Made by a program: the position numbers and the translations under genes
Origin: a virus
Lineage: Duplodnaviria > Caudoviricetes
Length of the DNA: 37,247 nucleotides
Reading direction: 5' to 3' (one strand)
IMG/VR virus record: IMGVR_UViG_3300048058_000015
Span: 1 to 37,247 of that record
Notes under the pieces: model-generated
The model's database searches: none
The model's input: only the letters and a program-made list of their open reading frames with translations
What the model was told of the DNA's origin: nothing
In this document: positions 14,250-32,716 of the stretch, piece by piece
Layout of the letters: each line of letters opens with the position of its first letter
Numbering within the stretch: position 1 is the stretch's first letter

Positions 14250-14428
14250 TTCTTGTTGGTATAGGTTCACTGATATTAGTATATGCAGCTATTCAATGGG
14301 TAAGATTCTTCTACTATTGTATTAAAATTGTCTATTATCGATTATTCAGTACGGATTATGAGTATCAGGCTTTCCTTAAAAAATTCAATAAAAACTACGG
14401 GGATATTATTCGGGGACACCCAGAATAA
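14246..14428 (+). CDS. Small membrane protein
   Basis: 60 aa, hydrophobic N-terminal helix, ATGA coupling to upstream gene. Confidence 0.45.
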   Translation: MILVGIGSLILVYAAIQWVRFFYYCIKIVYYRLFSTDYEYQAFLKKFNKNYGDIIRGHPE

Positions 14429-14585
14429 ACCCGAAGAAACATTTTGGTTGAATGCGTCAATTTAATCAACAATATTATTAATTAAAGTCCTTCGGGTTTA
14501 TGCCGGTAAAGGACGTCTACACTTTAACCCGGCGTTATCTAACACTCTTTCTTCAAGGAACCAATCTCTTAAAGATCAATTAGCG
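14425..14585. ncRNA. Candidate structured RNA/terminator cluster
   Basis: 12-bp inverted repeat 14425-14436/14490-14501, internal hairpin, GCCGG..CCGGC hairpin 14502-14533; minus-strand promoter at 14591-14598 points into it. Confidence 0.4.
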
Positions 14586-14590
14586 TAAGG

Positions 14591-14598
14591 CAAATATA
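14591..14598 (-). promoter_or_regulatory. Bacteroidota -7 element (TATATTTG)
   Basis: CAAATATA on + strand; no ORF of 60 aa or more immediately downstream on the minus strand. Confidence 0.5.
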
Positions 14599-14643
14599 CA
14601 AAAATTCTGGACGGCAGTATATTTATGCAATGAAAAATGAAAT

Positions 14644-14838
14644 CTATCCAGGTTTCCTTTTCGATTTTATTAGCTCTGTCCTTATAATTCTAAATTCTGG
14701 ACGCTCATAAAACTCTCTCTTTTTCCTAATGAATTGATAATCCAATGTGTTCTTATTAATGCCGGTATTAACAGCAATAGCCTTCAAATTAGAGAAGGCT
14801 ATTAACTGGTCGTTTATCTTGTTGTGGTATATGTACAT
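14644..14838 (-). CDS. Small putative HTH DNA-binding protein
   Basis: 64 aa; FSNLKAIAVNTGINKNTL pattern; last gene of the minus-strand island. Confidence 0.6.
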   Translation of the reverse strand: MYIYHNKINDQLIAFSNLKAIAVNTGINKNTLDYQFIRKKREFYERPEFRIIRTELIKSKRKPG

Positions 14839-14866
14839 CTGGCGTCGATCAATGTTTAAAGTTAAT

Positions 14867-15298
14867 TCAGATTGAAGAGCCGTTTTCTATTAAAGCACCG
14901 TTTTCTATTAAAGCACCGTCTGCTATTGAAACGCCTTTTCCTATTGAAACGAGGTATCCTAGTGAAGCACCTTTTCCTAGTGAAGAGCCTTTTCCTAGTG
15001 AAGAGCCGTATCTTATTGAAACGCCGTCTGCTATTGAAACGCCGTCTGCTATTGAAACGCTTTCTCCTATTGAAACACCTTTTCCTAGTGAGACATAATT
15101 TTCTATTGAAACGAGGTATCTTAGTGAAACACCGTTTCCTATTGAAACATAGTTTCCTAGTGAAACATAGTCTCCTAGTGAAACGCTGTCTCCTATTGAG
15201 ATTTTTCGGCTTAAAAAATCGTCTTTTAAATCTTCAATGTTTTCATAACTGAATTTCTTCCAATTATAGTTTTCGTCTTTTAAGTAAATAGTTTTCAT
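14867..15298 (-). CDS. Hexapeptide-repeat (beta-helix-like) protein, truncated copy C1, 18 units
   Basis: Shared N-terminus MKTIYLKDEN...SRKIS plus [IL]-[GAER]-x-x-[VSA]-S repeats; stop right after TCA ATC. Confidence 0.85.
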   Translation of the reverse strand: MKTIYLKDENYNWKKFSYENIEDLKDDFLSRKISIGDSVSLGDYVSLGNYVSIGNGVSLRYLVSIENYVSLGKGVSIGESVSIADGVSIADGVSIRYGSSLGKGSSLGKGASLGYLVSIGKGVSIADGALIENGALIENGSSI

Positions 15299-15323
15299 AA
15301 TTTCTTTGTTTTAAAAAGTTAAT

Positions 15324-15827
15324 TCAGATTGAAGCACCGTTTCCTATTGAAACGCTGTCTGCTATTGAAACACCTTTTCCTATTGAAACGCCTTTTCCTA
15401 GTGAAACACAGCCTCCTATTGAAGAGCCTTTTCCTAGTGAAGAGCCGTATTCTAGTGAAGAGCCTCCTCCTATTGAAACACCTTTTCCTAGTGAAACACA
15501 GCCTCCTATTGAAACATCGTCTCCTATTGAAACGCCGCCTTCTATTGAAACACCGCATTCTATTGAAACGCCGTATCCTAGTGAAGCACCTTTTCCTAGT
15601 GAAGAGCCTTTTCCTAGTGAAGAGCCGTATCCTATTGAAACGCCGTCTGCTATTGAAACGCCGTCTGCTATTGAAACACCGTATTCTATTGAAACGCCGT
15701 CTGCTATTGAAACATAGTTTTCTATTGAGATTTTTCGACTTAACAAATCGCCTTTTAAATCTTCAATGTTTTCATAACTGAATTGCTTCCAATTATAGTT
15801 TTCGTCTTTTAAGTAAATAGTTTTCAT
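15324..15827 (-). CDS. Hexapeptide-repeat protein, truncated copy C2, 22 units
   Basis: Same N-terminus and 3' end as C1, different unit order. Confidence 0.85.
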   Translation of the reverse strand: MKTIYLKDENYNWKQFSYENIEDLKGDLLSRKISIENYVSIADGVSIEYGVSIADGVSIADGVSIGYGSSLGKGSSLGKGASLGYGVSIECGVSIEGGVSIGDDVSIGGCVSLGKGVSIGGGSSLEYGSSLGKGSSIGGCVSLGKGVSIGKGVSIADSVSIGNGASI

Positions 15828-15852
15828 AATTTCTTTGTTTTAAAAAGTTAAT

Positions 15853-16392
15853 TCAGATTGAAGAGCCGTCTGCTATTAAAGCACCGTCTGCTATTGAAAC
15901 GCCGTATTCTATTGAAACACCTTTTCCTATTGAAACGCCTTTTCCTAGTGAAACACAGCCTCCTATTGAAGAGCCTTTTCCTAGTGAAGAGCCGTATTCT
16001 AGTGAAGAGCCTCCTCCTATTGAAACACCTTTTTCTATTGAAACACAGCCTCCTATTGAAACGCCTTTTCCTAGTGAAACGCCTTTTCCTAGTGAAACAC
16101 CGTATTTTATTGAAACGCCGTATCCTATTGAAGAATAATCTCCTATTGAAACATAATTTTCTATTGAAACATAGTTTTCTAGTGAAACATCGTCTCCTAG
16201 TGAAACACAGCCTCCTATTGAAACGCCTTTTCCTAGTGAAACGCCTTTTCCTATTGAAGAGCCTTTTCCTATTGAAACGCCGTTTCCTAGTGAGATTTTT
16301 CGGCTTAATAAATCGTCTTTTAAATCTTCAATGTTTTCATAACTGAATTGCTTCCAATTATTATTTTCGTCTTTTAGGTAAATAGTTTTCAT
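15853..16392 (-). CDS. Hexapeptide-repeat protein, truncated copy C3, 24 units
   Basis: Same N-terminus and 3' end as C1, different unit order. Confidence 0.85.
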   Translation of the reverse strand: MKTIYLKDENNNWKQFSYENIEDLKDDLLSRKISLGNGVSIGKGSSIGKGVSLGKGVSIGGCVSLGDDVSLENYVSIENYVSIGDYSSIGYGVSIKYGVSLGKGVSLGKGVSIGGCVSIEKGVSIGGGSSLEYGSSLGKGSSIGGCVSLGKGVSIGKGVSIEYGVSIADGALIADGSSI

Positions 16393-16473
16393 AATTTCTT
16401 TGTTTGTTTAAAAATACGCTTCTGTTTCTTTTCAGTGATCCTCATCCTTCGATGTATGTACATCTGGCGTCGA

Positions 16474-16959
16474 TCAATGTTTAAAGTTAATTTCGATTGA
16501 AGCACCGTCTCCTAGTGAAACATAGTTTTCTATTGAAGAGCCTTCTCCTATTGAAACACAGCCCCCTATTGAAACGCCGCCTCCTATTGAAACATCGTAT
16601 CCTATTGAAACATAGTTTTCTATTGAAACGCTTTCTCTTATTGAAACATAGTTTTCTATTGAAACGCTTTCTCCTAGTGAAACGCCTTTTCCTAGTGAAA
16701 CGCCTTTTCCTAGTGAAACGCCGCCTCCTAGTGAAGAGCCTCCTCCTATTGAAACATAGTTTTCTATTGAAACAAGGCTTCCTATTGAAACGCCTTTTTC
16801 TATTGAAACACAGCCTCCTATTGAAACACTGTATCCTATTGAAACGCCGTTTCCTAGTGAGATTTTTCGGCTTAATAAATCGTCTTTTAAATCTTCAATG
16901 TTTTCATAACTGAACTGCTTCCAATTATTATTTTCGTCTTTTAAGTAAATAGTTTTCAT
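16474..16959 (-). CDS. Hexapeptide-repeat protein, truncated copy C4, 20 units plus EINFKH tail
   Basis: Same N-terminus; TCA ATC followed by GAA rather than TGA, so it reads 6 codons into the shared trailer. Confidence 0.85.
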   Translation of the reverse strand: MKTIYLKDENNNWKQFSYENIEDLKDDLLSRKISLGNGVSIGYSVSIGGCVSIEKGVSIGSLVSIENYVSIGGGSSLGGGVSLGKGVSLGKGVSLGESVSIENYVSIRESVSIENYVSIGYDVSIGGGVSIGGCVSIGEGSSIENYVSLGDGASIEINFKH

Positions 16960-16996
16960 AATTTCTTTGTTTGTTTGTTTAAAAAGTTAATTCAGA

Positions 16997-17305
16997 CTAA
17001 TTCTGTTTTTCTGTAGCTCTAAAAAGATGGGCATAATCAAACTCATCTAAACTATCCATGTCGTAAGTTACATAGCTATAATCTCCAAAGTCGAAGTCAT
17101 CTGGATAACTTGGATCGAAGACTTCACTCCCGGAAGCATCCAAAACAATGCCGTTTTCTTGTGGAAAAAAATCGTTGTCTTCAAGTGATGCCACTAAATT
17201 ATACATTTCTTTGTCGTTATTAACTTTGCCAACAAATTCAAATCCTTTTGTTGATCTGTTGTAATAACTAACACATTCGTTTACTTTTTTAAATACTGCT
17301 TTCAT
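16997..17305 (-). CDS. Hypothetical acidic protein (102 aa, MKAVFKKVNE...), first gene of the island
   Basis: Start reassigned to ATG 17305: it carries the same CAAACAAA..GAAATTATGAAA leader as the repeat genes, and the track's TTG start lies inside the promoter. Confidence 0.7.
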   Translation of the reverse strand: MKAVFKKVNECVSYYNRSTKGFEFVGKVNNDKEMYNLVASLEDNDFFPQENGIVLDASGSEVFDPSYPDDFDFGDYSYVTYDMDSLDEFDYAHLFRATEKQN

Positions 17306-17422
17306 AATTTCCGTTTGTTTGTTTAAAAATACGCTTCTGTTTCTTTTCAGTGATCCTCGCCTTGCGACGGTCGCTAGATTTGCTTTATGTTTCAGGGTTT
17401 CCGTTTGTTTTAATTTGATATT

Positions 17423-17430
17423 CAAATATA
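17423..17430 (-). promoter_or_regulatory. Bacteroidota -7 element (TATATTTG) driving the minus-strand island
   Basis: CAAATATA on + strand, about 120 bp upstream of ATG 17305. Confidence 0.6.
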
Positions 17431-17516
17431 TACATATATACGGTATAAACCTAATATAACTGTAAATACTCGATGAAATGCACTAAACTTTAACATATAT
17501 TATTTTTAAAAACTAC

Positions 17517-17536
17517 TTGGACAATAAAATGTCCAA
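17517..17536. promoter_or_regulatory. Operator-like inverted repeat upstream of the head operon
   Basis: TTGGACA-N6-TGTCCAA, 33 bp before the ClpP gene. Confidence 0.45.
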
Positions 17537-17569
17537 CGATTAACCTCTATCCGGAAGTATATTTATCCA

Positions 17570-18631
17570 ATGAAGAATGAAATCTATCTTATTGGTGAGG
17601 TTGGCTATGATGTAACACTTCAATCTGTGGTGGATTTAGTAGGCAATACCGATGAGAACGAGCCTTTAACCATTCATATACATTCGCCGGGAGGCTCTGT
17701 TTACGACGGGCTTGCAATATATAATTATCTTAAAGGGTTAGATCGTGAAATACACACTAAATCCGTCGGACTTATTGCCAGTATTGCTTCTGTTTTCTTT
17801 TTAGTAGGCAAAACCAGAGCCATAAACGAGAGCGATAAATTTTTAATCCATCTCCCAATGGGCGGCGAATGGGGTAATGCTGAAGACTTGGAAAGAACCG
17901 CTGAAGAACTTAGAGACATTGAAGATCGTTTGGCCACCATCTATGAGTTGGAAACAAATCTCTCAAAAGACGAAGCACTAGAGCTTATGAACAAAGATGA
18001 GTTTTTAGGATTAGATTTTTTACAAGAAAAGGGATTTATTAATGAAATTATAAAATTCAAAGCAGTAGCAACTTTAAACAAAAATAAAATGAGTAATACA
18101 GGAGTGACAAAGCAAGAAGTTGAAGGGATTTTCGCTAAATTTTTCAAGAAACACTTTGGAAAAAAAGAGATTCAAGCGAAAATCGTTACGGACGCAAGCG
18201 GAACAGAGATTGATTTCTTTGATTTAGAAAGTAATGACAGTCCAAAAGTTGGTGACAAAGCAACAGTTGATGGTGAGAAAGCCGACGGTGATTTTTTAAT
18301 GCCTAATGAAGACACTTTGCGGTTTGTTAGTGGAGAATTAAAGGAAATAATTGAAGCTGAGGAATCAGATGAGGAATCAGATGAGGATGCGGAGGCGGTC
18401 TTAAAGGAAAAAGTTGAAAATCTCGAACAAGAGCTGGAATCTAAAGAAACGGAAATAACTAATAGTGAAGAAGAGATAACCGAATTGAAAGAAACCATAT
18501 CTAACATGAAAAAAGACTTTAAAAAACTTAAAGCGCAAGTCAGCGGAAGGTTCGATTACAAGGCAAAAAAGAAACATAAGAAAGAAGACGAAACAGCCCC
18601 AAAAACACGAAAATTATATAAACAAGATTAA
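17570..18631 (+). CDS. Prohead maturation protease (ClpP/S14 family) fused to scaffold-like coiled coil
   Basis: IHSPGGSVYDGLAIYN, ASIAS (catalytic Ser), FLIH, KGFI; acidic coiled-coil C-terminus. Confidence 0.9.
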   Translation: MKNEIYLIGEVGYDVTLQSVVDLVGNTDENEPLTIHIHSPGGSVYDGLAIYNYLKGLDREIHTKSVGLIASIASVFFLVGKTRAINESDKFLIHLPMGGEWGNAEDLERTAEELRDIEDRLATIYELETNLSKDEALELMNKDEFLGLDFLQEKGFINEIIKFKAVATLNKNKMSNTGVTKQEVEGIFAKFFKKHFGKKEIQAKIVTDASGTEIDFFDLESNDSPKVGDKATVDGEKADGDFLMPNEDTLRFVSGELKEIIEAEESDEESDEDAEAVLKEKVENLEQELESKETEITNSEEEITELKETISNMKKDFKKLKAQVSGRFDYKAKKKHKKEDETAPKTRKLYKQD

Positions 18632-18643
18632 ACTTAATTAATT

Positions 18644-19696
18644 ATGGCATCACAAATAGACGTTGCGGCATTAACGCTTAATCCAGAAGAGGAAACAGAC
18701 GTATCACAAGCGGTATTCGAAAAAACGTTCGTTACCGGAGAGTTAGCAGACGTTCACGACATACAAACAGGTATCCAGCACAAACAGCAGATTGTTTTTA
18801 TCGATCAGTTAGATGTGAATGGGGAAGCGTTTACGGGTTGTGTACCTGTAGAACAAACAGGACTAACTTTAACTGAGAAGTTTTGGGACCCCGCCCTTAT
18901 TGGGGGACGATGGACACATTGTGCGGAAGACCTCGACCAGCTTACAAAGCTATTCAAGAAAGCAGAGCGGGCCAACCCTGACCATTTTGACAGGATTGAT
19001 TCAGAGGAGCTTGGGATTGTTATGACCAGAATTATGCAATCAATGAAGACTTCTGTTGGAGCTAAGGCATGGTTATCAGATAAAGCGGCAGCGGCACAAC
19101 CAGGGGGTAACTTCACGGCATCAGGATTTAATGCGGGGTTATGGAATCAAATTGACGGACTTTGGCAACAGATATTTGCTGACGGAAATATTCCCGTATA
19201 TACAATCAGTGAGAATGCGGGTGCATCATACGCCGCACAAGAATTATCCGTAGATGAGGGGCAAACCATTTTACGTCAACTTTATGAAAATGCCGATTCC
19301 CGTCTTTTAGGAGAAGTTGACGCCCAAATATTAGTTACACGAAGCATCTGGGACAACTATCTAATTACAACCGAAAACACCCAAGGCCAGGGCGGAATAA
19401 TTGAGCGTCAGGAGAACGGTGTTACTAAGTTAGACTTTAGAGGCATACCGGTAAAGCGTATGGACGATTGGGATAGAACCATCAGAAAATACCAGGACAC
19501 TACCACTGCATGGTATAGACCACACCGGGCCCTTTTAACTACTGAAGGTAACATTCCACTAGGAACTTTGAATGAGTCTGATCTAGAGACTTTAACATCT
19601 TTTTATTTTCAAAAAGATCTGTCAAACATTATGGATGTCGCTTACTATTTAGATGCGAAATTCGGTGAAAGTTACTTAGCATCAGCGGCTTATTAA
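18644..19696 (+). CDS. Major capsid protein
   Basis: 350 aa directly after protease/scaffold; IDGLW and FRGIPV motifs typical of HK97-fold capsids. Confidence 0.8.
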   Translation: MASQIDVAALTLNPEEETDVSQAVFEKTFVTGELADVHDIQTGIQHKQQIVFIDQLDVNGEAFTGCVPVEQTGLTLTEKFWDPALIGGRWTHCAEDLDQLTKLFKKAERANPDHFDRIDSEELGIVMTRIMQSMKTSVGAKAWLSDKAAAAQPGGNFTASGFNAGLWNQIDGLWQQIFADGNIPVYTISENAGASYAAQELSVDEGQTILRQLYENADSRLLGEVDAQILVTRSIWDNYLITTENTQGQGGIIERQENGVTKLDFRGIPVKRMDDWDRTIRKYQDTTTAWYRPHRALLTTEGNIPLGTLNESDLETLTSFYFQKDLSNIMDVAYYLDAKFGESYLASAAY

Positions 19697-19714
19697 TCTT
19701 AAAAAACAAGGACA

Positions 19715-20302
19715 ATGGCATTAAATTGTGAAGAAAAATTAACGGCAGACATACTTAAAGACTGCGACAACAAAGCGTCTGGTGGTATTGAGGTTAACGT
19801 TGTGCTTATCAACTTTGACGACATCGATAAAGCAACTAGCGTTACCGATGCAAACGGAGTTATAACTAATCTATCTACAAAATCAGGAACATCCGGATTT
19901 TTCGTAGAAGGTGTGAAACAAGTCCAGGGGGCATCAGCTGAACTAGTAAAAAAAGAAGACGGTTTTGATAAATATACTCATCTATTTTCAGGCGTGGTTT
20001 TATCACCATCGGCTGAGAATAAAAAATCTTTATCCGAAATAGCCAGCGGCAGTAGTTATGTTGCGGTTATTGAAAAAAAATGGAAAGGTGACGCGCAGGA
20101 AGATGCTTTTGAAGTGCTTGGGTGGGATGTAGGACTGGTTATTTCAACCGTTGTTTGGAACACCAAAGAATCTGACGGGGTCATTAAGTTTGAATTGGCC
20201 TCCGAAGAAGGTTTCGAAGAACCAGAATTGCCAAGAAACAATCTTGAAACAAATTACGCGACTACTAAGTTAGCTTTTGATAATAAATATGCAACGGCAT
20301 AA
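19715..20302 (+). CDS. Putative major tail tube/structural protein
   Basis: C...L..DI..DC....GGI, FEVLG...GL motifs; follows the capsid gene. Confidence 0.6.
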   Translation: MALNCEEKLTADILKDCDNKASGGIEVNVVLINFDDIDKATSVTDANGVITNLSTKSGTSGFFVEGVKQVQGASAELVKKEDGFDKYTHLFSGVVLSPSAENKKSLSEIASGSSYVAVIEKKWKGDAQEDAFEVLGWDVGLVISTVVWNTKESDGVIKFELASEEGFEEPELPRNNLETNYATTKLAFDNKYATA

Positions 20303-20305
20303 AAT

Positions 20306-20905
20306 ATGAATAATTGGGGCGATTATGACAAGCAGACTATTTGGGCAGATAAAAAGCGTGGAGGTTTGCTTGTTTCTTTTTTGACTGATTACCGGGAGAT
20401 GTTTAATCAACAGGTGAACGCTAGTTGTAAAAAGTGTTTTGAAAATTACTATAATAATTACTTAAATTCGACAGGACAAATGGAAATAAAGAAAAACGAA
20501 TGCGACTACGAGTTGCTCGCAAAATATAATGGAATGCAAATAGGCCATGGAGGAAGACCTATAAGAAATGGTGAGATGACTAATAAAATCGCTAAAGAAT
20601 TACTTGAATGGCACCCATTAGGAGAGGGGTTGTTCAAAGTAACCCCTCTAAAAACACGTCATGCCGAAGAACTAGCTGCTTCTCAGGCTGCTTTTGCCGA
20701 AAAATTCAATAGAGAGTTAGCGGAAAAACACGCGGAAACACACGGAATCAAATCAGATGAGGAATTGACACTGACTGAATTACGTGAAAAACATCCTGAT
20801 TTTAAGTCAAATAGCAAAGCCGGGTTTCTAGCAAAACTACAAGAACCAGTTAAAGCTGAAGAAGAAGAAAGAATAGCGGCAGAGGCCAAATCAGATGACG
20901 AATAA
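20306..20905 (+). CDS. Hypothetical protein (head module), CxxC motif
   Basis: 199 aa ORF in operon. Confidence 0.6.
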   Translation: MNNWGDYDKQTIWADKKRGGLLVSFLTDYREMFNQQVNASCKKCFENYYNNYLNSTGQMEIKKNECDYELLAKYNGMQIGHGGRPIRNGEMTNKIAKELLEWHPLGEGLFKVTPLKTRHAEELAASQAAFAEKFNRELAEKHAETHGIKSDEELTLTELREKHPDFKSNSKAGFLAKLQEPVKAEEEERIAAEAKSDDE

Positions 20906-20927
20906 TAATATTTAACAATTATGCTGA

Positions 20928-22358
20928 ATGCACTTCAAATTCAAGCTTTTAGATTTATTCAAACGCCGCACAAAAACGGATAAAAGAACCGAAGTAATCT
21001 TCAATGGCGAGGATAATTTATATGCTGAAGTAATAGAAAGGCTTACCAATAATTCGGTAACCGCAAAAACATCTTCTAAGATAATGGCCTCTTATATTAT
21101 TGGAAATGGGTTTGGTGAAGAAAAAGACAAAACAATTATAAATTCCGAGACCAGACCTCAACTTACTCTTAGAGGTTTTGGTAATATCATGTCCCAAAAT
21201 GTCTCCGTGCAAAGAGGCGTGTGGGTGCACGCGCAATATAACAGTAATTTTGATGTCGACAGGTATAACATATTGCCCTATAGCCACTGTCGTTTAGGAA
21301 AAGAAGATGACAATGACTATAGCGGTAAGATTGTTGTGTATGATAATTGGGACATGAGTCAGGGTAGAATTAATAAAGATGACTTTTTAATTTTCGATGT
21401 TTTCAACCCCAGCAAAGAGGTTGTAGAGTATCAAATAGACGCCGCCGGCGGAATAGATGATTATAAGGGACAGGTTCTTTATGTTAATTTAGACGCCCAG
21501 TTTGACTATGCTTTAGGGACTATTGACGCCACAATGCAGGATTGTGACAGTGAGAGACAGGCATCTATTTATAAGAACTGTTCTTTAAGACGTGGTTTTT
21601 ATGGAAAAACATTAGTAGTAACCAAGCCTCTTGCCGGAGGAATAGAAGGGGATCATGATCACGACATAAAAGAGCGAAAGGAAATAGAAAGCGAAAGGAA
21701 GAATTTTAAAAAGACAATGGAAGGCTTTTTAGGTGCTGAAAACACAGGAGGGCTTCTACATGTAGAGGTTGATCATGATGGAGATAATCTGGACGAAGCT
21801 TTTAAGGTTGAGCGCATTGATAGTGATATAGACGATAAGATGTTTGCTTTTACGGAAGGTTCTATTTTTAAAAATATCCTAATGTCCTTTAACAACATCC
21901 CCTCAGGATTGGTGCGTAGCGATAACTCTTTGTTTTCCGCTAATGGGGAATCTTTAGAAGTTATGAAGGAGACTTATCAGGAAAATACTGAATTCGAAAG
22001 AGACACGGTTGAAGAAATTATCAACATGTTAATGTCTTTTTTTAAGGATGATCTGGGTGAGTTAAAAATTATACCCCTAATCTCAACACCTAAAACACAG
22101 GCGGGAGAGGCCGGAGAAGTAGTAACCAGTGAAGACGATGACATTAAAAAGAAAGCGCAAGCGGCTTTAAAAGGAAGTGTTGGAGGAGTGACTGCGCTTC
22201 TTGAGATACAGAAAAGCGTAACAGACGGTGCTACAGATAGAGATTCTGCACTGACAATTATCGAAGAGATATTCGGCATAGACCGGGAATTAGCGGGTAG
22301 GATGCTTGGAGAAGTAAAGGAGGAACCAGAGGAACCAGAAAAAACAGAAGATGCCTAG
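20928..22358 (+). CDS. Portal protein
   Basis: 476 aa; NGEDNLY, YIIGNGF, F.GAENTG, FNNIP..L motifs; no other portal candidate. Confidence 0.8.
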   Translation: MHFKFKLLDLFKRRTKTDKRTEVIFNGEDNLYAEVIERLTNNSVTAKTSSKIMASYIIGNGFGEEKDKTIINSETRPQLTLRGFGNIMSQNVSVQRGVWVHAQYNSNFDVDRYNILPYSHCRLGKEDDNDYSGKIVVYDNWDMSQGRINKDDFLIFDVFNPSKEVVEYQIDAAGGIDDYKGQVLYVNLDAQFDYALGTIDATMQDCDSERQASIYKNCSLRRGFYGKTLVVTKPLAGGIEGDHDHDIKERKEIESERKNFKKTMEGFLGAENTGGLLHVEVDHDGDNLDEAFKVERIDSDIDDKMFAFTEGSIFKNILMSFNNIPSGLVRSDNSLFSANGESLEVMKETYQENTEFERDTVEEIINMLMSFFKDDLGELKIIPLISTPKTQAGEAGEVVTSEDDDIKKKAQAALKGSVGGVTALLEIQKSVTDGATDRDSALTIIEEIFGIDRELAGRMLGEVKEEPEEPEKTEDA

Positions 22359-22866
22359 AAGATTACTAATAAACCTTACCGATTATTCGGATTTTAAACA
22401 GATGTCACAGACCGCTTTTAACAGCACTATTGATCAATTTACCAATGATGCGCAGGAGCATGATGTTCAGGAGTTGCTAGGAAGGGATTTTTACAATGAT
22501 CTGTTAAGGAATTATGATTCGACAGAGTACCAGGCGTTGCTTAATCCAGGGGATTATGTGTTTGAAAGCACGACTTATTATAACGTGGGCTTGAAGTCTG
22601 TTATTGTTCATTACGGGTATGCCAGGTACAAGTTTTTAGGGAGTAATCAGGACACGCCTTTCGGAACGGTTGTAAAGCATTCAGAATCAAGCAGCCCAAG
22701 TTCAGATGTGACCTTAAAAAATATATGGAAAGAAAACAGGAATATGGCTTACACTTATTGGGAAAATGTCAAAGAATTCTTAGACAGGAATTCAGACGAC
22801 TACCCTCTTTATGAAAGCCAGTGCAGGACTAATAAGAATAGGTTCAGAATTTCACGAATAGGATGA
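22351..22866 (+). CDS. Putative head-tail adaptor
   Basis: AQ..DV..LLG.DFY..L helical pattern; overlaps portal stop. Confidence 0.6.
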   Translation: MPRRLLINLTDYSDFKQMSQTAFNSTIDQFTNDAQEHDVQELLGRDFYNDLLRNYDSTEYQALLNPGDYVFESTTYYNVGLKSVIVHYGYARYKFLGSNQDTPFGTVVKHSESSSPSSDVTLKNIWKENRNMAYTYWENVKEFLDRNSDDYPLYESQCRTNKNRFRISRIG

Positions 22867-22893
22867 ATTAATATTAACCATAAATAGGGAATT

Positions 22894-24330
22894 ATGGCAA
22901 CAAGAATTTTTTTAGAGGAAGGGTACTTGAACTTTGTAGATGATGACGATACAGAGGTGAGTGAAAGAGTGTTGGATGATGATTTTTTCTACCAACTTGC
23001 CAATGATTTGTTCGCGTTTTATAAGCTGCGATTAAATGACCTTATTTTGTCAATTTATTTTAGTGACATACGAGATAAAAACGGGAATTCTTACTCAAAC
23101 ATTAAGGAATTCGAAAAAGAAATTAACCAGGGAAGAAAACAAGTAGCACTTTCCAATGTACACACCAGTCCAACCGGGAATATAAGCGTCTCTGAAGCAT
23201 CACTTATCTTTAATTTGGATTTTGAATACACGGTTGACAATGACGACGTTATTACTAAAGATCTTACCGGAGGAGGAAGTGTAGTGCAGTCCAATGGAAT
23301 GGCTGTTATAAGCACGTCGATTACAACAGGCAGTCTTGCGCTATTGTCCGGGAGGGTTCCTACTATATATAATGCGGGGCAGTCAGGTGTTCTTTTATTT
23401 TCTGTTTTATTCGAATCTTCCGCCGCAAACACTGAACAGTATATCGGTTTAATCGATGAGCAGGGATCAACATCCGCCTTTAAAAACGGTTTGGTCTTGG
23501 GTTATGACGGTACTACTTTTGGGTTTCATAAATTCAAAAATGATATAAAAACCACCATACCATCAAGTCAATGGCAGGACCCTTTAGATGGGACCGGAAA
23601 AAGCGGTGCAGTCTTAGACACAACGAAGCTTAACGTTTTTAAATTGGAGTACCATAATTTGCCTGTTGGAGTTATTAACATTTTTTTTGAAACAAAAGAC
23701 GGTGAATTCATACATGTATATTCGGAGAACAACTCCGGACAAGATATAGAACCAAGGATTTTTAATGCCAATCTGTTGTTTAAAGCGTGTGCGTCCAACA
23801 AAGCCACTACTGTGGACCTGGTTTTAAAATGTTCATTTGCGTCTTACTTTATTGAAGGAAAGACTAATCTTATAGCATTGCATCAGTCACAACATTCTAC
23901 CTCTGTAGTTTCTAAGTCTACAGTGACCGCCAGGGTTCCTGTTTTGACCATTAGAAACAAAGCCACGTATGCAGGAGGCAAGAATTTTATAACAATTATC
24001 TTAGAAAGATACGGGTTTTCGGTGGAAGCCTCATCTGCTAATAATCTCGCCGAATTTATATTGATAAAAAACGGAACTTTGGGGGGCACTCCTTCCTTTG
24101 TCGATATACACACTAATAATTCAGTGGTTGAATTAGACACCTCCGCTACTAGCGTGAGTGATGGTAGAGAGCTTTTAGGATCTCCACTTGCGGGTAAAAA
24201 CGATAAATCTATAGAATCTTTGACGGAATATAATTTTCTTGTTGGTCCGGGAGAAACAATTACATTAGCAGCAGAAAGTGATAATTCAGCAACAATGCGT
24301 GGTGAGTTATTATGGAAAGAATTAATTTAA
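22894..24330 (+). CDS. Virion structural protein, beta-rich
   Basis: 478 aa; IP.S.W.DPLDGTG.SG..LD.TK and C-terminal L.WKE motifs found in phage structural proteins. Confidence 0.6.
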   Translation: MATRIFLEEGYLNFVDDDDTEVSERVLDDDFFYQLANDLFAFYKLRLNDLILSIYFSDIRDKNGNSYSNIKEFEKEINQGRKQVALSNVHTSPTGNISVSEASLIFNLDFEYTVDNDDVITKDLTGGGSVVQSNGMAVISTSITTGSLALLSGRVPTIYNAGQSGVLLFSVLFESSAANTEQYIGLIDEQGSTSAFKNGLVLGYDGTTFGFHKFKNDIKTTIPSSQWQDPLDGTGKSGAVLDTTKLNVFKLEYHNLPVGVINIFFETKDGEFIHVYSENNSGQDIEPRIFNANLLFKACASNKATTVDLVLKCSFASYFIEGKTNLIALHQSQHSTSVVSKSTVTARVPVLTIRNKATYAGGKNFITIILERYGFSVEASSANNLAEFILIKNGTLGGTPSFVDIHTNNSVVELDTSATSVSDGRELLGSPLAGKNDKSIESLTEYNFLVGPGETITLAAESDNSATMRGELLWKELI

Positions 24331-24340
24331 AAATAAAACA

Positions 24341-24721
24341 ATGGCAGTAACATTCAATGGAACAAAAAACAGTCTTGACGCTAACCAATTGCCCAGCGGT
24401 TATAGTCGTCCGGTTGTTGTAGAGATCTCTGATGCGGAGTATGTCTTTACAAAAGAAATAAGCGTGCTTAAAAGCACGGTTGAAAATGCAACAGCATCAA
24501 CAACTATGACTAATATTTTTGAAGATGTAGGAATAGGATTAAACGCTGTAATAGAAGCTGATATAACAGCTGATTTTGACGCAACCAAGACCGTTACAGC
24601 ACATGCTGACCTTACGGCTCTTAAGACTAATCTATCAAGCCTTACAGGGTCTGGTGATTGGTTAACTAACGCAGTTGTTAATTATCTTGCAACTGTTACA
24701 ATATATGTAAAAGTGGTTTAA
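24341..24721 (+). CDS. Hypothetical structural protein
   Basis: 126 aa, Thr/Ala/Val-rich. Confidence 0.55.
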   Translation: MAVTFNGTKNSLDANQLPSGYSRPVVVEISDAEYVFTKEISVLKSTVENATASTTMTNIFEDVGIGLNAVIEADITADFDATKTVTAHADLTALKTNLSSLTGSGDWLTNAVVNYLATVTIYVKVV

Positions 24722-24738
24722 TTAATAGTTGAGGGGCT

Positions 24739-25086
24739 ATGATAAGTAATAATAATAATATGATTCTTTACTTTTACACCTTTTTATTCAAGGGTATAAT
24801 GTTGTTGTTTAACCTCTGTTTGGGGTGGTTAGGGTTGATGGTGATTTTTCAAAACACCTTAGATGATAATATAGTTAATATTTTTTTGGATTCTGTTCCC
24901 TCACAATTTGGCATGTGGATAGGTTTTATTTACCTTTTTGTTATGTTAATTAGAAAAATAAGTGATACATGGAAGGCTCACAGGACTAATTTTTATGAGG
25001 TTAAAAAAGCAAAAGAATCATACAAGCAATCAAAAATCATCACTCAAAAGAAGTCGAATGAACTTAACAAGTTAGATGGGATATAA
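24739..25086 (+). CDS. Membrane protein, holin/antiholin candidate
   Basis: Two hydrophobic segments and a basic tail, overlaps the endolysin start. Confidence 0.55.
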   Translation: MISNNNNMILYFYTFLFKGIMLLFNLCLGWLGLMVIFQNTLDDNIVNIFLDSVPSQFGMWIGFIYLFVMLIRKISDTWKAHRTNFYEVKKAKESYKQSKIITQKKSNELNKLDGI

Positions 25087-25549
25087 TTACGGAAAAAATA
25101 GCGATGCGGAATTAAATGGTTGTCATTCTGATTTACAAAAAATAATGAGGCTTGCAATTTCCAGAAGTAAAGTTGATTGGGGTATCTCAGAAGGACATAG
25201 AACTGTTGAAAGGCAAAACCAACTATTTATTGAAGGAAAATCAAAGATAGACGGTGTTACCAAGCTTGGAAAGCACAACTTAATTCCTAGTGAAGCGGTT
25301 GACATCTTTGGATATCACCCGGATTTAAAAACAAGAAGAAAATTAGCTTATGATAAAACAACCTTAAGCTACATTGCCGGGATTATTGATTCATGCGCCT
25401 ATGAATTATGGGAATCAGGAGAAACCGCCCACCTAATTAGGTGGGGTGCTAACTGGGATTCTGATGGGATTATTGACTATGATCAATCTTTTGATGACTT
25501 CCCGCATTTTGAATTAATTAAGAATATTAGTCGTGGGAAAACAACTTAA
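25076..25549 (+). CDS. Endolysin, M15 family (L-Ala-D-Glu peptidase-like)
   Basis: EGHRT.ERQ..L...GKS, H......D zinc ligands, RWG..W, D.PHFEL. Confidence 0.88.
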   Translation: MGYNYGKNSDAELNGCHSDLQKIMRLAISRSKVDWGISEGHRTVERQNQLFIEGKSKIDGVTKLGKHNLIPSEAVDIFGYHPDLKTRRKLAYDKTTLSYIAGIIDSCAYELWESGETAHLIRWGANWDSDGIIDYDQSFDDFPHFELIKNISRGKTT

Positions 25550-25985
25550 AAATGACGGCAAGGGTACTTTCTTTGGTAACTTATTAAGAGGTGCCTTAAA
25601 GACAGGTGAAAAGATTGGAGTACCTTTATTAGATGCAATTAGCGGTGGTAAGGTTACTGATATCATTAAGGCGATTTCGGAAGATAAGGAGCTTACACAA
25701 GAAGAAAAAGAAATGCTAATCGCAGAAATGCAGAAAGACATTGAACACGAAAGAGAGTTAACAAAAAGATGGGAATCAGATAATAAATCTCAGGATTGGT
25801 TGCCCAGAAATATAAGACCTTTGGTAGTCGCTAACTTTACTTTACTCATTGATTATGTGATAATAGCGGGAACGCATGGAACAAAATTAGGAGAAACTTA
25901 TCTGCCTCTTTTAATGACAATGGGCGTAACAGCGGTAGGGGGTTACTTTACTTTGCGCGAATTTGGAAAAAGCAGACATTCCTGA
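25533..25985 (+). CDS. Holin (3TM/GTA-holin-like)
   Basis: RWESD..S..WL.RNIRP followed by hydrophobic helices and GGYF..R...K. Confidence 0.75.
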   Translation: MGKQLKNDGKGTFFGNLLRGALKTGEKIGVPLLDAISGGKVTDIIKAISEDKELTQEEKEMLIAEMQKDIEHERELTKRWESDNKSQDWLPRNIRPLVVANFTLLIDYVIIAGTHGTKLGETYLPLLMTMGVTAVGGYFTLREFGKSRHS

Positions 25986-26016
25986 AAAGTTAAATCTAAA
26001 CAATTTATTTAAAATA

Positions 26017-26048
26017 TTTGGTGGTTTAAAATAAGTTTTATATATTTG
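26017..26048 (+). promoter_or_regulatory. Bacteroidota sigma-A promoter for the early region
   Basis: TTTG (26017-26020), N20, TATATTTG (26041-26048): full -33/-7 consensus. Confidence 0.75.
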
Positions 26049-26076
26049 TGCTGTTAAACAAAACAAAAACAGTGAA

Positions 26077-26322
26077 ATGAACTCTCCGATAACATCAAAC
26101 ATCAAAAAAATCTCTTATGAGGTGGGTGATCCTTTTGTTTGCGTCGCTCCTTTTAAAGACTTTGAAAAAGGTGAAAAGTATATAGTATTTAAAATAATAG
26201 AATATAGATGGAGCAGTGAATGTGCTTACTACGCATACACTCATAAGGGAAAGTTTGATTTAAAGCCTCCTAAATTAACATCATTTCACGATAATGATTT
26301 TAATAAAATAATCAAGCTATAG
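26077..26322 (+). CDS. Hypothetical protein
   Basis: First ORF after the early promoter. Confidence 0.55.
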   Translation: MNSPITSNIKKISYEVGDPFVCVAPFKDFEKGEKYIVFKIIEYRWSSECAYYAYTHKGKFDLKPPKLTSFHDNDFNKIIKL

Positions 26323-26326
26323 AATC

Positions 26327-26608
26327 ATGAGAAAAAAAGAATTTAGAATATTAGAGGTCGATGGATGCTTTCGTGTTCAAAGACAATTTAAAGAGAAGAA
26401 GCTTGTGAGAAGAGGCTTGTTAAAGAATGATTATGAATTCATTATGGAATGGCAAGCTGTATGTGAAAAAGGTTGCCAAACTATTTATTTTGATTCTTTT
26501 GGGGGGTGGGTAAGCCCTCCTCAAAAACCTTTCAAATCTATGAAAAAAGCTCGGGCATTTATCATTAGGGTTTGCGAAAAACCTAAATATCATTATCCGT
26601 TTAAATAA
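26327..26608 (+). CDS. Hypothetical protein
   Basis: 93 aa, closely packed. Confidence 0.6.
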   Translation: MRKKEFRILEVDGCFRVQRQFKEKKLVRRGLLKNDYEFIMEWQAVCEKGCQTIYFDSFGGWVSPPQKPFKSMKKARAFIIRVCEKPKYHYPFK

Positions 26609-26615
26609 AACAATC

Positions 26616-26804
26616 ATGAAAACTAAAATCAACACTTTTTTAATATTGGCAATTATTTTTTTAATATCCACTATAATAGCGGTTTGGATTGACACTGATT
26701 TTGTCGCAAAAATCCTTGTAACAGAACTTTTTGGCTTTGCTTTGTATATACTTATAAAAGATCGCAAGGCTATTATTGCTATTATTAAAGAGCTTACGAA
26801 ATGA
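26616..26804 (+). CDS. Small two-TM membrane protein
   Basis: Two hydrophobic stretches. Confidence 0.55.
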   Translation: MKTKINTFLILAIIFLISTIIAVWIDTDFVAKILVTELFGFALYILIKDRKAIIAIIKELTK

Positions 26805-26952
26805 ATTTACTGATTACAATGCCTAAAGCTTGGAATCCATCCAGAAAGAACGGTTTTAATAGGTGGATTAATAAGGTTCACAATTACGTAGAACGCAAAA
26901 ACTTTAAGAAATAAAAATGGCAAATAGAAGTAGACTTTAAAGAAGTAGTATA

Positions 26953-27177
26953 ATGACAACACATCAAAGGCTTAGATCAAAGTGGAGTGCCGCCGAATTT
27001 GGAGTAAAGACGAGAGTTTTTCAAGAGCATTTGCAACAGAAAATTGAGTATATATTAAAAACCGAAACCTACTCCAAAGAGGAAGTAATGCTAGAGATAA
27101 TGGCCTCTATAGAAAAGCATTCTAAAGAGGTGGTTAAGGAGGCAAAATATATGGACAGCAAAATACAGGGCTCATGA
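26953..27177 (+). CDS. Hypothetical protein
   Basis: 74 aa, coupled to next ORF. Confidence 0.55.
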   Translation: MTTHQRLRSKWSAAEFGVKTRVFQEHLQQKIEYILKTETYSKEEVMLEIMASIEKHSKEVVKEAKYMDSKIQGS

Positions 27178-27530
27178 AAAAGAAAACAATAGCAGTAATA
27201 GCTAAAAACCGTCAAGCGTTTAATCGCTGGTGCGAATCCACTGATTTGAAATCGGACACAAAATATATGTATATATCTAATCCGTCACAAGTTTTAGAAC
27301 GAGAATATGACGAGATTATTCATACAGAAGGATGGTGGCAGAATAAAGAATCCTATAGTGCCGTACAAAACGTTAAATCAAAGCTAAAAGAGTTTCAGAG
27401 AGATTCTGATCTCGATTATATTAAGGGGTTGGAAAAAGTATCAAGACGCTATGAGATAGCTATATACATCTTAGGTGTATTATTTTTTATCACCGCCGCC
27501 TTTTTAATTATATCGATTACAAAAAAATAA
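27174..27530 (+). CDS. Hypothetical protein with C-terminal membrane anchor
   Basis: 118 aa, hydrophobic C-terminus. Confidence 0.6.
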   Translation: MKKKTIAVIAKNRQAFNRWCESTDLKSDTKYMYISNPSQVLEREYDEIIHTEGWWQNKESYSAVQNVKSKLKEFQRDSDLDYIKGLEKVSRRYEIAIYILGVLFFITAAFLIISITKK

Positions 27531-27577
27531 CTAAAAGAGACATGCTAGATATAGCCTCTTAAACAAACAAAGAAATT

Positions 27578-28393
27578 ATGAAAACTATTTACCTAAAAGA
27601 CGAAAACTATAATTGGAAGAAATTCAGTTATGAAAACATTGAAGATTTAAAAGACGATTTATTAAGCCGAAAAATCTCACTAGGATACGGTGTTTCAATA
27701 GCAGACAGCGTTTCAATAGCAGACGGCGTTTCAATAGGAGAAAGCGTTTCAATAGCAGAAAGCGTTTCAATAGAAGGCGATGTTTCAATAGAATACGGCT
27801 CTTCACTAGGAGACTATGTTTCACTAGGAAAAGGCGTTTCACTAGGAAAAGGTGTTTCAATAAGAGACGGCGTTTCAATAAGATACGGCTCTTCACTAGG
27901 AAACGGTGTTTCAATAGGAAAAGGTGTTTCAATAGGATACCTCGTTTCAATAGGATACGGTGTTTCAATAGGAAATTATTCTTCAATAGAAGGCGATGTT
28001 TCAATAGAATACGGCTCTTCACTAGGATACGATGTTTCACTAGGAAAAGGCGTTTCACTAGGAAAAGGTGTTTCACTAGGAAAAGGTGTTTCACTAGGAA
28101 AAGGCGTTTCACTAGGAAAAGGCGTTTCAATAGGAGACGAGGCTTCAATCGGAAACGAAATAAAGCTGGTTACCGGCTTTTACTTAAACGGAACCAAAGA
28201 CACTGTTACTTATGTTGGAAATAACAAGTTATCCATTGGCTGTCATTGTTTAAAAATCTCTAATTGGTTAAAGAATTATGAGAAGATGGGTAGAGAAGGA
28301 GGTTATTCAGAAGATCAAATTCAGGAATATTACGGTTACATAAAACTGGCCGAAAAATTTGTAAAAAACTTAAAAGAAATAAAAACAACCTAA
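27578..28393 (+). CDS. Full-length hexapeptide-repeat (beta-helix-like) protein: shared N-terminus, 26 units, 80-aa C-terminal domain
   Basis: Same leader and N-terminus as C1-C4; repeats end at 28150; C-terminal SIGCH....W...EY domain resembles caps of other phage repeat proteins. Confidence 0.9.
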   Translation: MKTIYLKDENYNWKKFSYENIEDLKDDLLSRKISLGYGVSIADSVSIADGVSIGESVSIAESVSIEGDVSIEYGSSLGDYVSLGKGVSLGKGVSIRDGVSIRYGSSLGNGVSIGKGVSIGYLVSIGYGVSIGNYSSIEGDVSIEYGSSLGYDVSLGKGVSLGKGVSLGKGVSLGKGVSLGKGVSIGDEASIGNEIKLVTGFYLNGTKDTVTYVGNNKLSIGCHCLKISNWLKNYEKMGREGGYSEDQIQEYYGYIKLAEKFVKNLKEIKTT

Positions 28394-31445: not shown

Positions 31446-31664
31446 ATGAAAACACCCATGCAAGAATTGATTAAAGAAGTAAGGGAATTGCAATTAAACG
31501 CAAGACATATCCCGGAAAAAGTAATCGATGAACTTTTAGAAAAAGAAAAGCAAATGGTTATTGAGGCTTATAATGATGGTAAATTTTATGGAAGTGGAAC
31601 AGGAAATATTGAAAAATTAGAAGATACAGGAGAACATTATTACAACGAAACATTTAAGAAATGA
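31446..31664 (+). CDS. Hypothetical protein
   Basis: KTPMQELI...EKEKQMVIEAY...YYNETF pattern recalled from Bacteroidota phages. Confidence 0.65.
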   Translation: MKTPMQELIKEVRELQLNARHIPEKVIDELLEKEKQMVIEAYNDGKFYGSGTGNIEKLEDTGEHYYNETFKK

Positions 31665-31933
31665 GTAAAGCAGAGTTCACAATAGAAAATGCCAAACATA
31701 TTGTAAAGGAAATATTTGGAGAAGAAGAAGCTGAAGACACAGACGTAGTTGACTTCTATCACAGATGTAATAAAATAGCAATGGAGGAATTTGCAGAAGC
31801 CTACCTCCAGAACAGAGTAAAGGCTATCACTGAGGAGGAGATTAAATCTACAATGTGTGGTCGTTGTTTAAGATATACAGCAATAGGAGCAATTAATTGG
31901 TACAAAGAACAACTATTAAACAAAGAATCATGA
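31661..31933 (+). CDS. MSKA-family paralogue 1
   Basis: Shares MSKA start, RVKAI and W[YF]K.QLLN end with the next two ORFs. Confidence 0.7.
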   Translation: MSKAEFTIENAKHIVKEIFGEEEAEDTDVVDFYHRCNKIAMEEFAEAYLQNRVKAITEEEIKSTMCGRCLRYTAIGAINWYKEQLLNKES

Positions 31934-32196
31934 GTAAAGCAGCAAAGGAATTTAGAAAAAAGTTTTTTCAATCAAGATATTATACTAGAAAAAGAATATG
32001 TGAATGTATGGAAGCCTACCACCAGAGCAGGGTTAACGCTATAAGTGAGGAATTAATGATTATAACTAAGGATGAATTTAGAAATAAACTGATGCAAGAA
32101 GAGGAAGTATTAGATTTAGATTTAGTTTCTTACGGTACGGGGTTTAGAAATTGTTACAGATGGTTTAAAAACCAACTATTAAACACAGAACAATGA
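31930..32196 (+). CDS. MSKA-family paralogue 2
   Basis: Start reassigned to ATG 31930 (ATGA overlap, MSKA). Confidence 0.7.
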   Translation: MSKAAKEFRKKFFQSRYYTRKRICECMEAYHQSRVNAISEELMIITKDEFRNKLMQEEEVLDLDLVSYGTGFRNCYRWFKNQLLNTEQ

Positions 32197-32241
32197 GAAA
32201 CGAAACATATAACTTAATAGGGTACAAAAATATTTTTAGAA

Positions 32242-32514
32242 ATGAGTAAAGCAGAGGAAATCTTAACAGTTGAACAAATAGCAAACTTTGCGGTTAATAA
32301 CACCAACCTACCATCGGATAATAGAAGAGTATTAAAAGCAACTTTAATGGGCTTTATAACCGCTAAAATTGAGCAAGAATTTGAGAACAGAGTAAAGGCT
32401 ATAAGTGATGAAAGAATTGATGATAGATTTTATATGGCAAATGTTAAGGAAAAAGAATTAATTGATGCGGCAATAAAATGGTTCAAAAACCAACTATTAA
32501 ACACAGAACAATGA
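32242..32514 (+). CDS. MSKA-family paralogue 3
   Basis: Ends WFKNQLLNTEQ like paralogue 2. Confidence 0.7.
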   Translation: MSKAEEILTVEQIANFAVNNTNLPSDNRRVLKATLMGFITAKIEQEFENRVKAISDERIDDRFYMANVKEKELIDAAIKWFKNQLLNTEQ

Positions 32515-32716
32515 GCTTACATGTTAATGAATGAAGAAGTAATTATAGCACCTAAGATGTACGTTACTAACGAGTACTATGTATTCAGGAGTAGTGGTGA
32601 AGAGATACCCTTTAGTATTGTAGCCGGAATAATAAGAGACCAGAAATTAAAGAGGTTAACAGAGAAGGAAAAACAATTTATTAAAGATAATATTATTTAG
32701 ATTAAAAATAATTTTG

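Follow-up and report, generated by a model that had tools for sequence, protein, structure and literature searches.

The phage genome analysed here (the window, the whole stretch of 37,247 nucleotides) contains one full-length hexapeptide-repeat gene, F, and a tandem array of four truncated copies (cassettes C1 to C4), and all five copies draw on one pool of 18-bp repeat units. The reading that we prefer, while holding it with a little less than even confidence, is that the array is an amplified truncated duplicate and that the five copies would form a two-way recombining pool, trading units by ordinary in-register recombination. The secure result reaches wider: in a common phage family, solenoid repeats change between near-identical strains with both ends fixed.

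Anatomy of the five copies

The five open reading frames (ORFs) were found where an earlier note on this DNA had placed them, four in tandem on the minus strand and one on the plus strand:

27559..28393, plus strand: F gene with the shared leader (ATG at 27578; ORF 27578-28393, 271 aa)
27677..28162, plus strand: 18-bp repeat tract of F (TRF 27677-28157, period 18, 26.7 copies; unit table)
16474..16976, minus strand: C1, truncated, with leader (ORF 16474-16959, 161 aa; 20 regular units and an EINFKH tail)
15853..16411, minus strand: C2, truncated, with leader (ORF 15853-16392, 179 aa; 24 units)
15324..15844, minus strand: C3, truncated, with leader (ORF 15324-15827, 167 aa; 22 units)
14867..15315, minus strand: C4, truncated, with leader (ORF 14867-15298, 143 aa; 18 units)

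F has a three-part build of an N-cap (aa 1-33), 27 hexapeptide units, and a C-domain (about aa 196-271). The leader AAACAAAGAAATTATG stands upstream of all five copies, as the earlier note had it, and a near copy lies upstream of the ORF at 16997-17296. The 5' coding block was indeed near-identical, with 2-6 differences between copies, and measured 99 bp rather than the approximately 105 bp first proposed; the head of C4 is nearest to that of F (2 differences in 99). The tracts of C1, C2, C3, C4, and F hold 21, 24, 22, 18, and 27 units, respectively (for C1 and F, this includes an irregular final unit), and these 112 units represent 66 DNA types whose order differs from copy to copy, in agreement with the claim that number and order vary. 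Of the 112 units, 109 have TCA as their first codon and 110 have ATA or CTA as their second; the variation is concentrated in codons 3-5. The long antisense ORFs that cross the tracts are due to the repeat itself.

Among the five copies, the C-domain is present in F alone, as had been reported. C1 ends in its short EINFKH tail, and C2-C4 stop directly after the first two codons of their last unit; all four cassettes end at the tract/C-domain border and retain the leader and 99 bp of 5' homology. The array is opposite in orientation to F and makes up 5.7% of the genome, a share that argues for selection on it.

Family membership and predicted structure

F matches PHROG 5353 at E 4.7e-42 (aa 1-269; profile positions 4-254 of 256) and, on this profile evidence, is a member of that large phage family, which is characterized by an N-cap, a hexapeptide solenoid, and a conserved C-domain. 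C1-C4 match the profile only from position 4 to 148-179. Pfam Hexapep (PF00132) scored 56-77 bits in all five copies against a cut-off of 27, which bears out the hexapeptide motif recognized in the earlier note.

In the AF2 model of F, a block with pLDDT of 95-98 covers aa 201-260, and the repeats have pLDDT of 48-73. Structure comparison gave LbH matches at Z 13-19 but with rmsd of 11-12, and other solenoids with rmsd of 2.4-4; VIA-align of the model to LpxD gave Z 19.1. A left-handed triangular helix is a candidate shape for the repeat solenoid, whose handedness is not confirmed. The C-domain is better conserved than any other part of the PHROG 5353 proteins. It had no PDB sequence match and, modelled as part of F, no Foldseek PDB match at E<=0.001; we make no claim of a new fold. 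Where homologues carry an automatic 'LpxD' label, the label mirrors nothing more than the repeat.

The array in public sequence data

A run search listed one run with this DNA (X1) and no RNA run. Its contigs that were placed on the window (73/73) were at least 99% alike to it, and one of them crosses the junction between the C2 end and the C3 head. These public-run contigs support the array as real DNA, with the limit that X1 is possibly the source sample and hence not independent support.

The earlier note had itself raised the concern that variants of one locus from several strains were joined in tandem during assembly, and our check went against it. Uneven depth across the array (4.2, 5.5, 7.7, and 9.4 are listed against 14.4), public contigs that break at the array, and a fraction of 0.74 of the sampled words of 14300-17600 present in the run's contigs would fit such an artefact. 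We nonetheless consider it highly improbable, given that the junction sequences are unique, no exact repeat in the window exceeds 125 bp, the cassette ends have stops and flanks absent from F, and the cassette-specific depths add up to about 38, which is about 2.6x the single-copy depth (14.4). Bins of the array without X1 contig cover were not taken as absence. An apparent joint and insertion in the X1 contig comparison were discarded, being due to the C1 leader and F pieces matched to the wrong copy.

Tract variation among relatives

In one subfamily, 28 distinct tracts of 2-29 units occur among 30 full alleles, whose heads and C-domains are 96.6% and 97.4% identical, respectively. The tract also varies between near-identical strains in which no truncated copies were found. 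For the strain pair L018/L020, 6/7 differences in 19,891 bp fall inside the tract (the L018 record is 100% complete and has one gene copy), and for L003/L004 it is 34/54 differing positions that fall in tract bins. No paper on this family's variable tract was found in the literature. Fixed ends with changing repeats, as in fungal NLR sensors, point to a likely arms-race protein. It is possible, and we suggest it tentatively, that the protein is an intracellular binder whose variable beta-solenoid surface targets a host protein that itself changes, perhaps one belonging to a defence system. A natural allelic series of the family is available for testing.

The earlier note had suggested a search of related phages for the same pair of array and full-length gene: no truncated tandem array was found among about 100 family loci, and this genome is the only one in which we have seen one. 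A profile search gave 98 representatives at E<=1e-30, some of them long unrelated repeat proteins. The other family loci have one copy each, or two dispersed copies in 3 contigs. A separate truncated homologue in L042 ends just past its last repeat, early stops occur in 2/70 of the subfamily allele set, and a distant single homologue is present in 51 Flavobacterium phage records. With 19 types in 26 core units, the F tract is richer than those of 7/13 relatives (0.25-0.55 types per unit); the remaining 6/13 have 0.67-1.0.

No close relatives of this phage came up when viral contigs were searched with F, the C-domain of F, ORF 29743, or the protease. An N-terminal word search had no match, and a genome-contig pattern search gave 19 loci, none of which are family members. 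The protein collection under-samples the family (0/6 control repeat homologues present), so that the absence of F and C1-C4 from it is uninformative. The proteins of this phage are also encoded on another JGI contig, 37,281 bp in length, and a relative that is 87% identical, P0211, is represented by a contig of 12 kb.

Exchange among the copies

The supposition of a single unit pool behind all the copies was borne out, as Fst between F and the cassettes was -0.012 and unit vocabulary structure was not significant (p 0.06-0.88 over 6 tests). The cassettes share long blocks among themselves (125 bp in C2/C3 and 59 bp in C3/C4; 0/300 shuffles reach either), in which exchange and descent are not separated. 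Between cassettes and F, the signals modestly suggest exchange and carry no direction: the F/C2 block is 52 bp (p 0.017) and F/C1 has p 0.03, both uncorrected and 2 of 10 pair tests, and the F tract can be tiled from the cassettes for all but 1 of 468 bases with 28 pieces, compared with 31.1 for shuffled donors (p 0.02). In the heads, all four combinations occur for site 16 paired with site 30 and for site 16 paired with site 43; a C2 5' end taken from F-like sequence, or a lost cassette, are alternatives for this mosaic. Several dicodons common in C1-C3 are absent from F. Unit pN/pS is 0.303/0.127. Against the two-way pool stand the rich F tract, the share of the genome that the array takes up, and the fact that exchange with F and common descent are not separated.

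When isolation was simulated, short conversion tracts yielded an Fst of 0.019-0.022 (sd 0.024-0.031) and overlapped with the observation, and long tracts gave 0.056-0.064, a poor fit. Isolation, which the overlap allows, would fit neutral debris (a recent duplication with tandem slippage, without later F exchange or function), and so would an array seen in one genome only and the head positions at which cassettes deviate from the family consensus (N11 in C1 and C2, G26 in C3). We regard debris as quite improbable, considering that unit order is scrambled though the heads differ by so few bases, and that 2.1 kb are retained in a 37-kb genome as four frames without stop or frameshift (a weak point, since there are few point changes).

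The central idea of the earlier note was that stored tracts are swapped into F. The anatomy and the shared pool on which it builds hold; silent donors, one-way flow, and a need for the array are not supported: leaders and ATGs are kept, and relatives in which no truncated array was found vary the tract strongly. A dedicated one-way archive, with C1-C4 kept as vls/pilS-like donors that convert patches of F, would explain the common end point with its retained homology, the inversion of the array, the slightly better than chance tiling, and an F tract more diverse than in 7/13 relatives. It appears unlikely to us because the leaders, ATGs, and open frames are retained, the differences among cassettes are mosaic, and the family diversifies with no such array found at its other loci. 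No F variant was seen in the 73 X1 contigs either, which is weak evidence as contigs drop rare variants.

The island and the origin of the array

The array sits in an island that reads leftward, with tail genes on one side and head genes on the other, and is bracketed by a pair of 37-bp direct repeats. F lies in the early block; the early-region location given in the earlier note applies to F and not to the array. The features around it are:

14612..14648, plus strand: left copy of the 37-bp direct repeat, 92% alike to 17552-17588
14644..14838, minus strand: 64-aa ORF closing the island, weak phrog_28730 match (E 5e-4)
16399..16492, minus strand: C1-C2 spacer, a mosaic of two copied segments
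16997..17296, minus strand: 99-aa ORF heading the island, function unassigned by profile searches
17423..17430, minus strand: TATATTTG, weak candidate Bacteroidota-type promoter of the island
17552..17588, plus strand: right copy of the direct repeat, taking in the initial codons of the gene for the ClpP-like head protease
26041..26048, plus strand: TATATTTG, weak candidate promoter of the F-holding operon

Both promoter calls are weak and follow what we take to be the Bacteroidota-type consensus; a generic sigma-70 scan was uninformative. The 99-aa ORF had no Pfam match above cut-off and none in PHROGs, NCBIfam, PADLOC, or Atlas. The PADLOC scan gave nothing useful, and an Rfam scan of the island gave 3 chance matches far below threshold and no structured RNA.

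The C1-C2 spacer joins two copied stretches, 38 bp that repeat what follows C4 (14830-14867) and 54 bp that repeat 17314-17367, the region upstream of the 99-aa ORF, and is probably the footprint of a tandem duplication. Under the two-way pool, a copy of F would have moved to the separate island, lost its C-domain once, and then been amplified in tandem; the junction repeats suggest this course, and the mosaic spacer and shared end point argue for a single truncation before duplication. A dedicated enzyme would be unnecessary, as host RecA or slippage between units could suffice. C1-C4 are likely expressed, judging from the leader and start codon that they keep, and would then be transcribed and translated as solenoids without a C-domain, so that any reservoir role for F would be a side effect.

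It is also conceivable that C1-C4 are selected as proteins in their own right (decoys, competitors, or extra binders), with F exchange incidental. This would agree with the candidate promoter followed by four leader-bearing open frames, with the truncated homologue of L042, and with a unit pN/pS of about 2 or more in each cassette, although pairwise values among units are not an independent-sites test. The uneven depths hint at copy or tract heterogeneity, a hint that assumes Poisson cover and 150-bp reads and uses 8 unique or junction pieces of 71-73, and anti-defence segmental amplification is known in T-even phages (PMC13096335). We think such selection unlikely given that the missing C-domain is the family's most conserved part and that truncated forms are rare (L042; 2/70 early stops). 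If the truncated proteins do act alone, they would be an example of phages multiplying binding surfaces.

Comparison with known systems

The earlier note had recognized no reverse transcriptase (RT) or site-specific recombinase, and this stands: no RT or recombinase family, and no ERF, was matched among the ORFs scanned (Pfam, PHROGs, NCBIfam) of a record that is 100% complete by CheckV. A diversity-generating retroelement (DGR) was rejected, as no RT was matched and there is no adenine-only TR/VR pair; the copies differ in how many units they have and how these are ordered, with changes at A, C, G, and T alike. A shufflon or invertase was rejected for want of a recombinase match among the phage ORFs scanned and because the homology in inverted orientation extends over the entire gene (440-560 bp), not short sites. 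It seems doubtful to us that the phage has an RT-free and recombinase-free device for viral antigenic variation, in which stored cassettes supply new tracts to a combinatorial beta-solenoid binder and a crossover could also flip a segment; a purpose-built antigenic-variation archive is possible. Since array and F are inverted with both candidate promoters (minus strand, 17430; plus strand, 26041) between them and pointing outward, a 10.6-12.7-kb head/lysis segment might flip, and F would then gain the 5' tract of a cassette and still be transcribed. An array that feeds F would offer phages a way of diversifying a protein apart from DGRs and shufflons.

F shares the three-part build of PHROG 5353, whose tracts are also hypervariable, and differs in that four truncated tandem copies accompany the full gene. 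LbH acyltransferases (LpxA, LpxD, GlmU) resemble it in the Hexapep score and the Z value to LpxD; however, F falls far under the cut-off of all NCBIfam enzyme models, its repeats are pure and uninterrupted, and rmsd to LbH chains is 12. Segmental amplification of anti-defence loci in T-even phages, driven by the SegB endonuclease (PMC13096335), is likewise tandem amplification in a phage genome with possibly variable copy number, whereas the copies here are truncated and divergent and no endonuclease family was matched.

Like Borrelia vlsE/vls and Neisseria pilE/pilS, our phage has a complete locus, an array of tandem partial homologues, and mosaic patterns. There, pilS copies are without promoters and ribosome-binding sites, vls cassettes are unexpressed, and pilS-to-pilE transfer is one-way (PMC4534519); in contrast, all four copies here keep F's leader, ATG, open frames, and 5' end and are without the 3' domain, and the variation is in repeat number and order. 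The fungal HNWD NLR sensors het-d/het-e (PMC11761791), which show high internal conservation (HIC), have near-identical repeats, concerted evolution, length polymorphism, and a few hypervariable codons per repeat. They are eukaryotic proteins whose 42-aa units form WD40 propellers and whose ligand is known; the phage protein has 6-aa solenoid units without NACHT or HET domain. The F tract shows the near-identical repeats, length polymorphism, and excess amino-acid change at few codons of HIC repeat sensors, and by this analogy het-d/het-e would be the best match for how the tract works.

Anatomy of the five copies

All five copies were re-examined, and the four truncated open reading frames (ORFs) and one distant full-length ORF with a common leader, head and variable tracts, as first described, were confirmed.

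27578-28393, plus strand: F, full-length gene (271 aa; N-cap or head, tract of 27 units of 18 bp, C-domain)
16474-16959, minus strand: C1, truncated copy (cassette)
15853-16392, minus strand: C2, cassette
15324-15827, minus strand: C3, cassette
14867-15298, minus strand: C4, cassette

The unit consensus in the tracts was S-[IL]-[GEAR]-x-x-[VSA]. Codons 1-2 were near-invariant even at the silent position and variation lay in codons 3-5; pN/pS between pairs of units was 0.303/0.127, the units being non-independent and the values indicative only. Because C2-C4 stop directly after codons 1-2 of their last unit, and C1 six codons further, all four cassettes terminate at the point where the C-domain of F would begin.

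F matched PHROG 5353 (a phage family of N-cap, hexapeptide solenoid and C-domain proteins) end to end and C1-C4 matched its first two thirds. No enzyme model scored above its cut-off. AF2 (47 sequences) predicted a small beta-hairpin/helix cap, a solenoid at low confidence and a confident C-domain. The sequence of the F repeats indicates LbH; the model compared with LbH chains gave an rmsd of 12, so left-handedness is putative. In Atlas viral clusters (predicted models, leads only), the F-type C-domain occurred either alone or attached to a Hexapep, YdcK-type or pentapeptide solenoid. The C-domain of the family is exchangeable, since two related genes (L018:9134-10057 and L033:570-1115) fuse the same N-cap and repeats to a different C-terminal domain, without a match to the C profile.

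Genome context and contig support

The 37,247-bp virus record was rated 100% complete and carries terminase, tail, ClpP-like protease, capsid and replication genes. The host is probably a member of Bacteroidota, given that the capsid's named cultured matches were one Bacteroides and one Elizabethkingia phage (23-24% identity). The first 26 bases (1-26) recur at 92% in the small terminase gene (862-887), possibly an assembly end effect, and a run of small ORFs with ends in common (31446-32540; repeats D4, D6) forms a second modular duplicated region.

The single public run containing the record (X1) is a sediment metagenome and may be the source sample. The 73 contigs matched to 13.5-29.5 kb all showed at least 99% identity, and none was listed with a substitution, gap or joint. 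The longest exact repeat anywhere in the window is 125 bp. Depths of cassette-specific pieces were 9.4 (C1), 7.7 (C2), 14.8 and 17.6 (C3), and 4.2 and 5.5 (C4), totalling ~38 vs 14.4 for a single copy; C1-C4 therefore do not represent alternative alleles of a single locus. Assuming 150-bp reads, four of eight tested pieces were covered less deeply than a Poisson model predicts (p 0.0005-0.04; few of the matched pieces listed), which hints at heterogeneity within the array, although real depth is overdispersed. The concern that strain variants had been concatenated is countered by this summed depth and by one X1 contig covering the junction of the C2 end and C3 head, and we regard an assembly artefact as very improbable. 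Another X1 contig shares the leader region at 15288 and 27591 and then diverges from the record altogether; it may come from a related phage that uses this leader too.

Origin of the island

The C1-C2 spacer combines a 38-bp copy of post-C4 sequence with a 54-bp copy of sequence ahead of the island's first ORF, and the TCTGAATTAAC element containing the stop codon of C2-C4 also precedes C1. From this we infer that a single truncation, followed by tandem duplication, would have produced the array. The 2.9-kb island lies between two copies of a 37-bp direct repeat, an arrangement that suggests it was inserted ahead of the protease gene. A 26-codon ORF (14612-14710, plus strand) begins MKNEIY, as does the head protease, this start being part of the repeat. 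Upstream of both copies of the 54-bp repeat, X-X'-X patterns on the minus strand (16440-16465 and 17345-17375; GATG/CATC/GATG and GCGA/TCGC/GCGA), seen by eye, could form alternative hairpins; no Rfam match was obtained there. A TATATTTG motif, the Bacteroidota promoter consensus, lies upstream of the island as a weak candidate promoter; the 8-mer occurs six times in the window.

Possible exchange between copies

Common blocks between cassettes (125 and 59 bp) were longer than in all 300 shuffles, and C2-C4 were tiled from other copies far better than chance. Between F and the cassettes the exchange signal was modest: Fst was -0.012, the longest common block measured 52 bp, tiling gave p 0.02, and head sites showed four-gamete patterns. 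Simulated isolation with short conversion tracts could attain the same Fst; long tracts could not easily do so. The data point in no direction, and the earlier note's archive, with a one-way flow from cassettes to F, seems unlikely to us. Each of C1-C4 has F's leader, ATG and an open frame. It is likewise doubtful that the truncated proteins are selected in their own right, and improbable that the array is neutral debris. Tentatively, we favour a pool in which exchange runs both ways and the truncated copies are likely expressed.

Relatives and tract variation

Head-pattern scans, which catch two head types only, gave 8 viral loci, of which 6 belong to the family, and 41 metagenome loci, of which 23 do. 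Another 120 viral loci, 76 of them hit by an N or C profile, came from a last scan over 36 of 64 parts, and 40 of these had short flanks only. There was one match per listed locus and no tandem truncated neighbour at any. The complete records G003 and G006 have one gene apiece, as does the more distant G004. Arrays may have been lost in assembly at other loci, as the contig end falls inside the tract in 29 of 70 cases. A lone truncated homologue (L042:2660-3136, on a 5.4-kb contig) stops just past its last repeat. In three contigs (L117/L139, L109/L083, L107/L194) a pair of dispersed copies is separated by 12-45 kb, the two being alike over the gene only (284-404 bp). This could reflect movement of the gene as a module, or the joining of two prophages.

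L018 and L020 showed 7 differences in 19,891 bases, 6 of them within the tract, and L003 and L004 (partial records) differed in unit number and order. L016:2401-2997 has an entirely different tract type from L003:3327-3995, with flanks 97-99.8% identical (partial records); the allele was exchanged for one from an unseen donor. The large subfamily including L002 (L083-L200, viral_contigs) holds 28 tracts of 2-29 units among 30 full alleles, with heads and C-domains ~97% identical, an allelic series for testing repeat-dependent specificity. Since relatives vary the tract strongly without truncated copies, hypervariability can be explained without the array.

Comparison with known systems

A search of the openly accessible literature turned up neither an account of this family nor a phage cassette archive of this form. 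The arrangement is real and unusual, seen once, and the family is hypervariable and apparently undescribed. DGR and shufflon identities were rejected on feature tests of the window, in agreement with the initial reading. In its behaviour the tract resembles the high-internal-conservation repeats of the fungal het-d/het-e sensors (PMC11761791), and the tandem build of the array resembles phage gene amplification (PMC13096335). Donor copies at pilS have neither promoters nor RBS, and the cassettes of vls are not expressed (PMC4534519), whereas C1-C4 keep leader, ATG and open frame. On this feature they therefore fall outside the vls/pilS class, although the system could nonetheless operate in a similar way.
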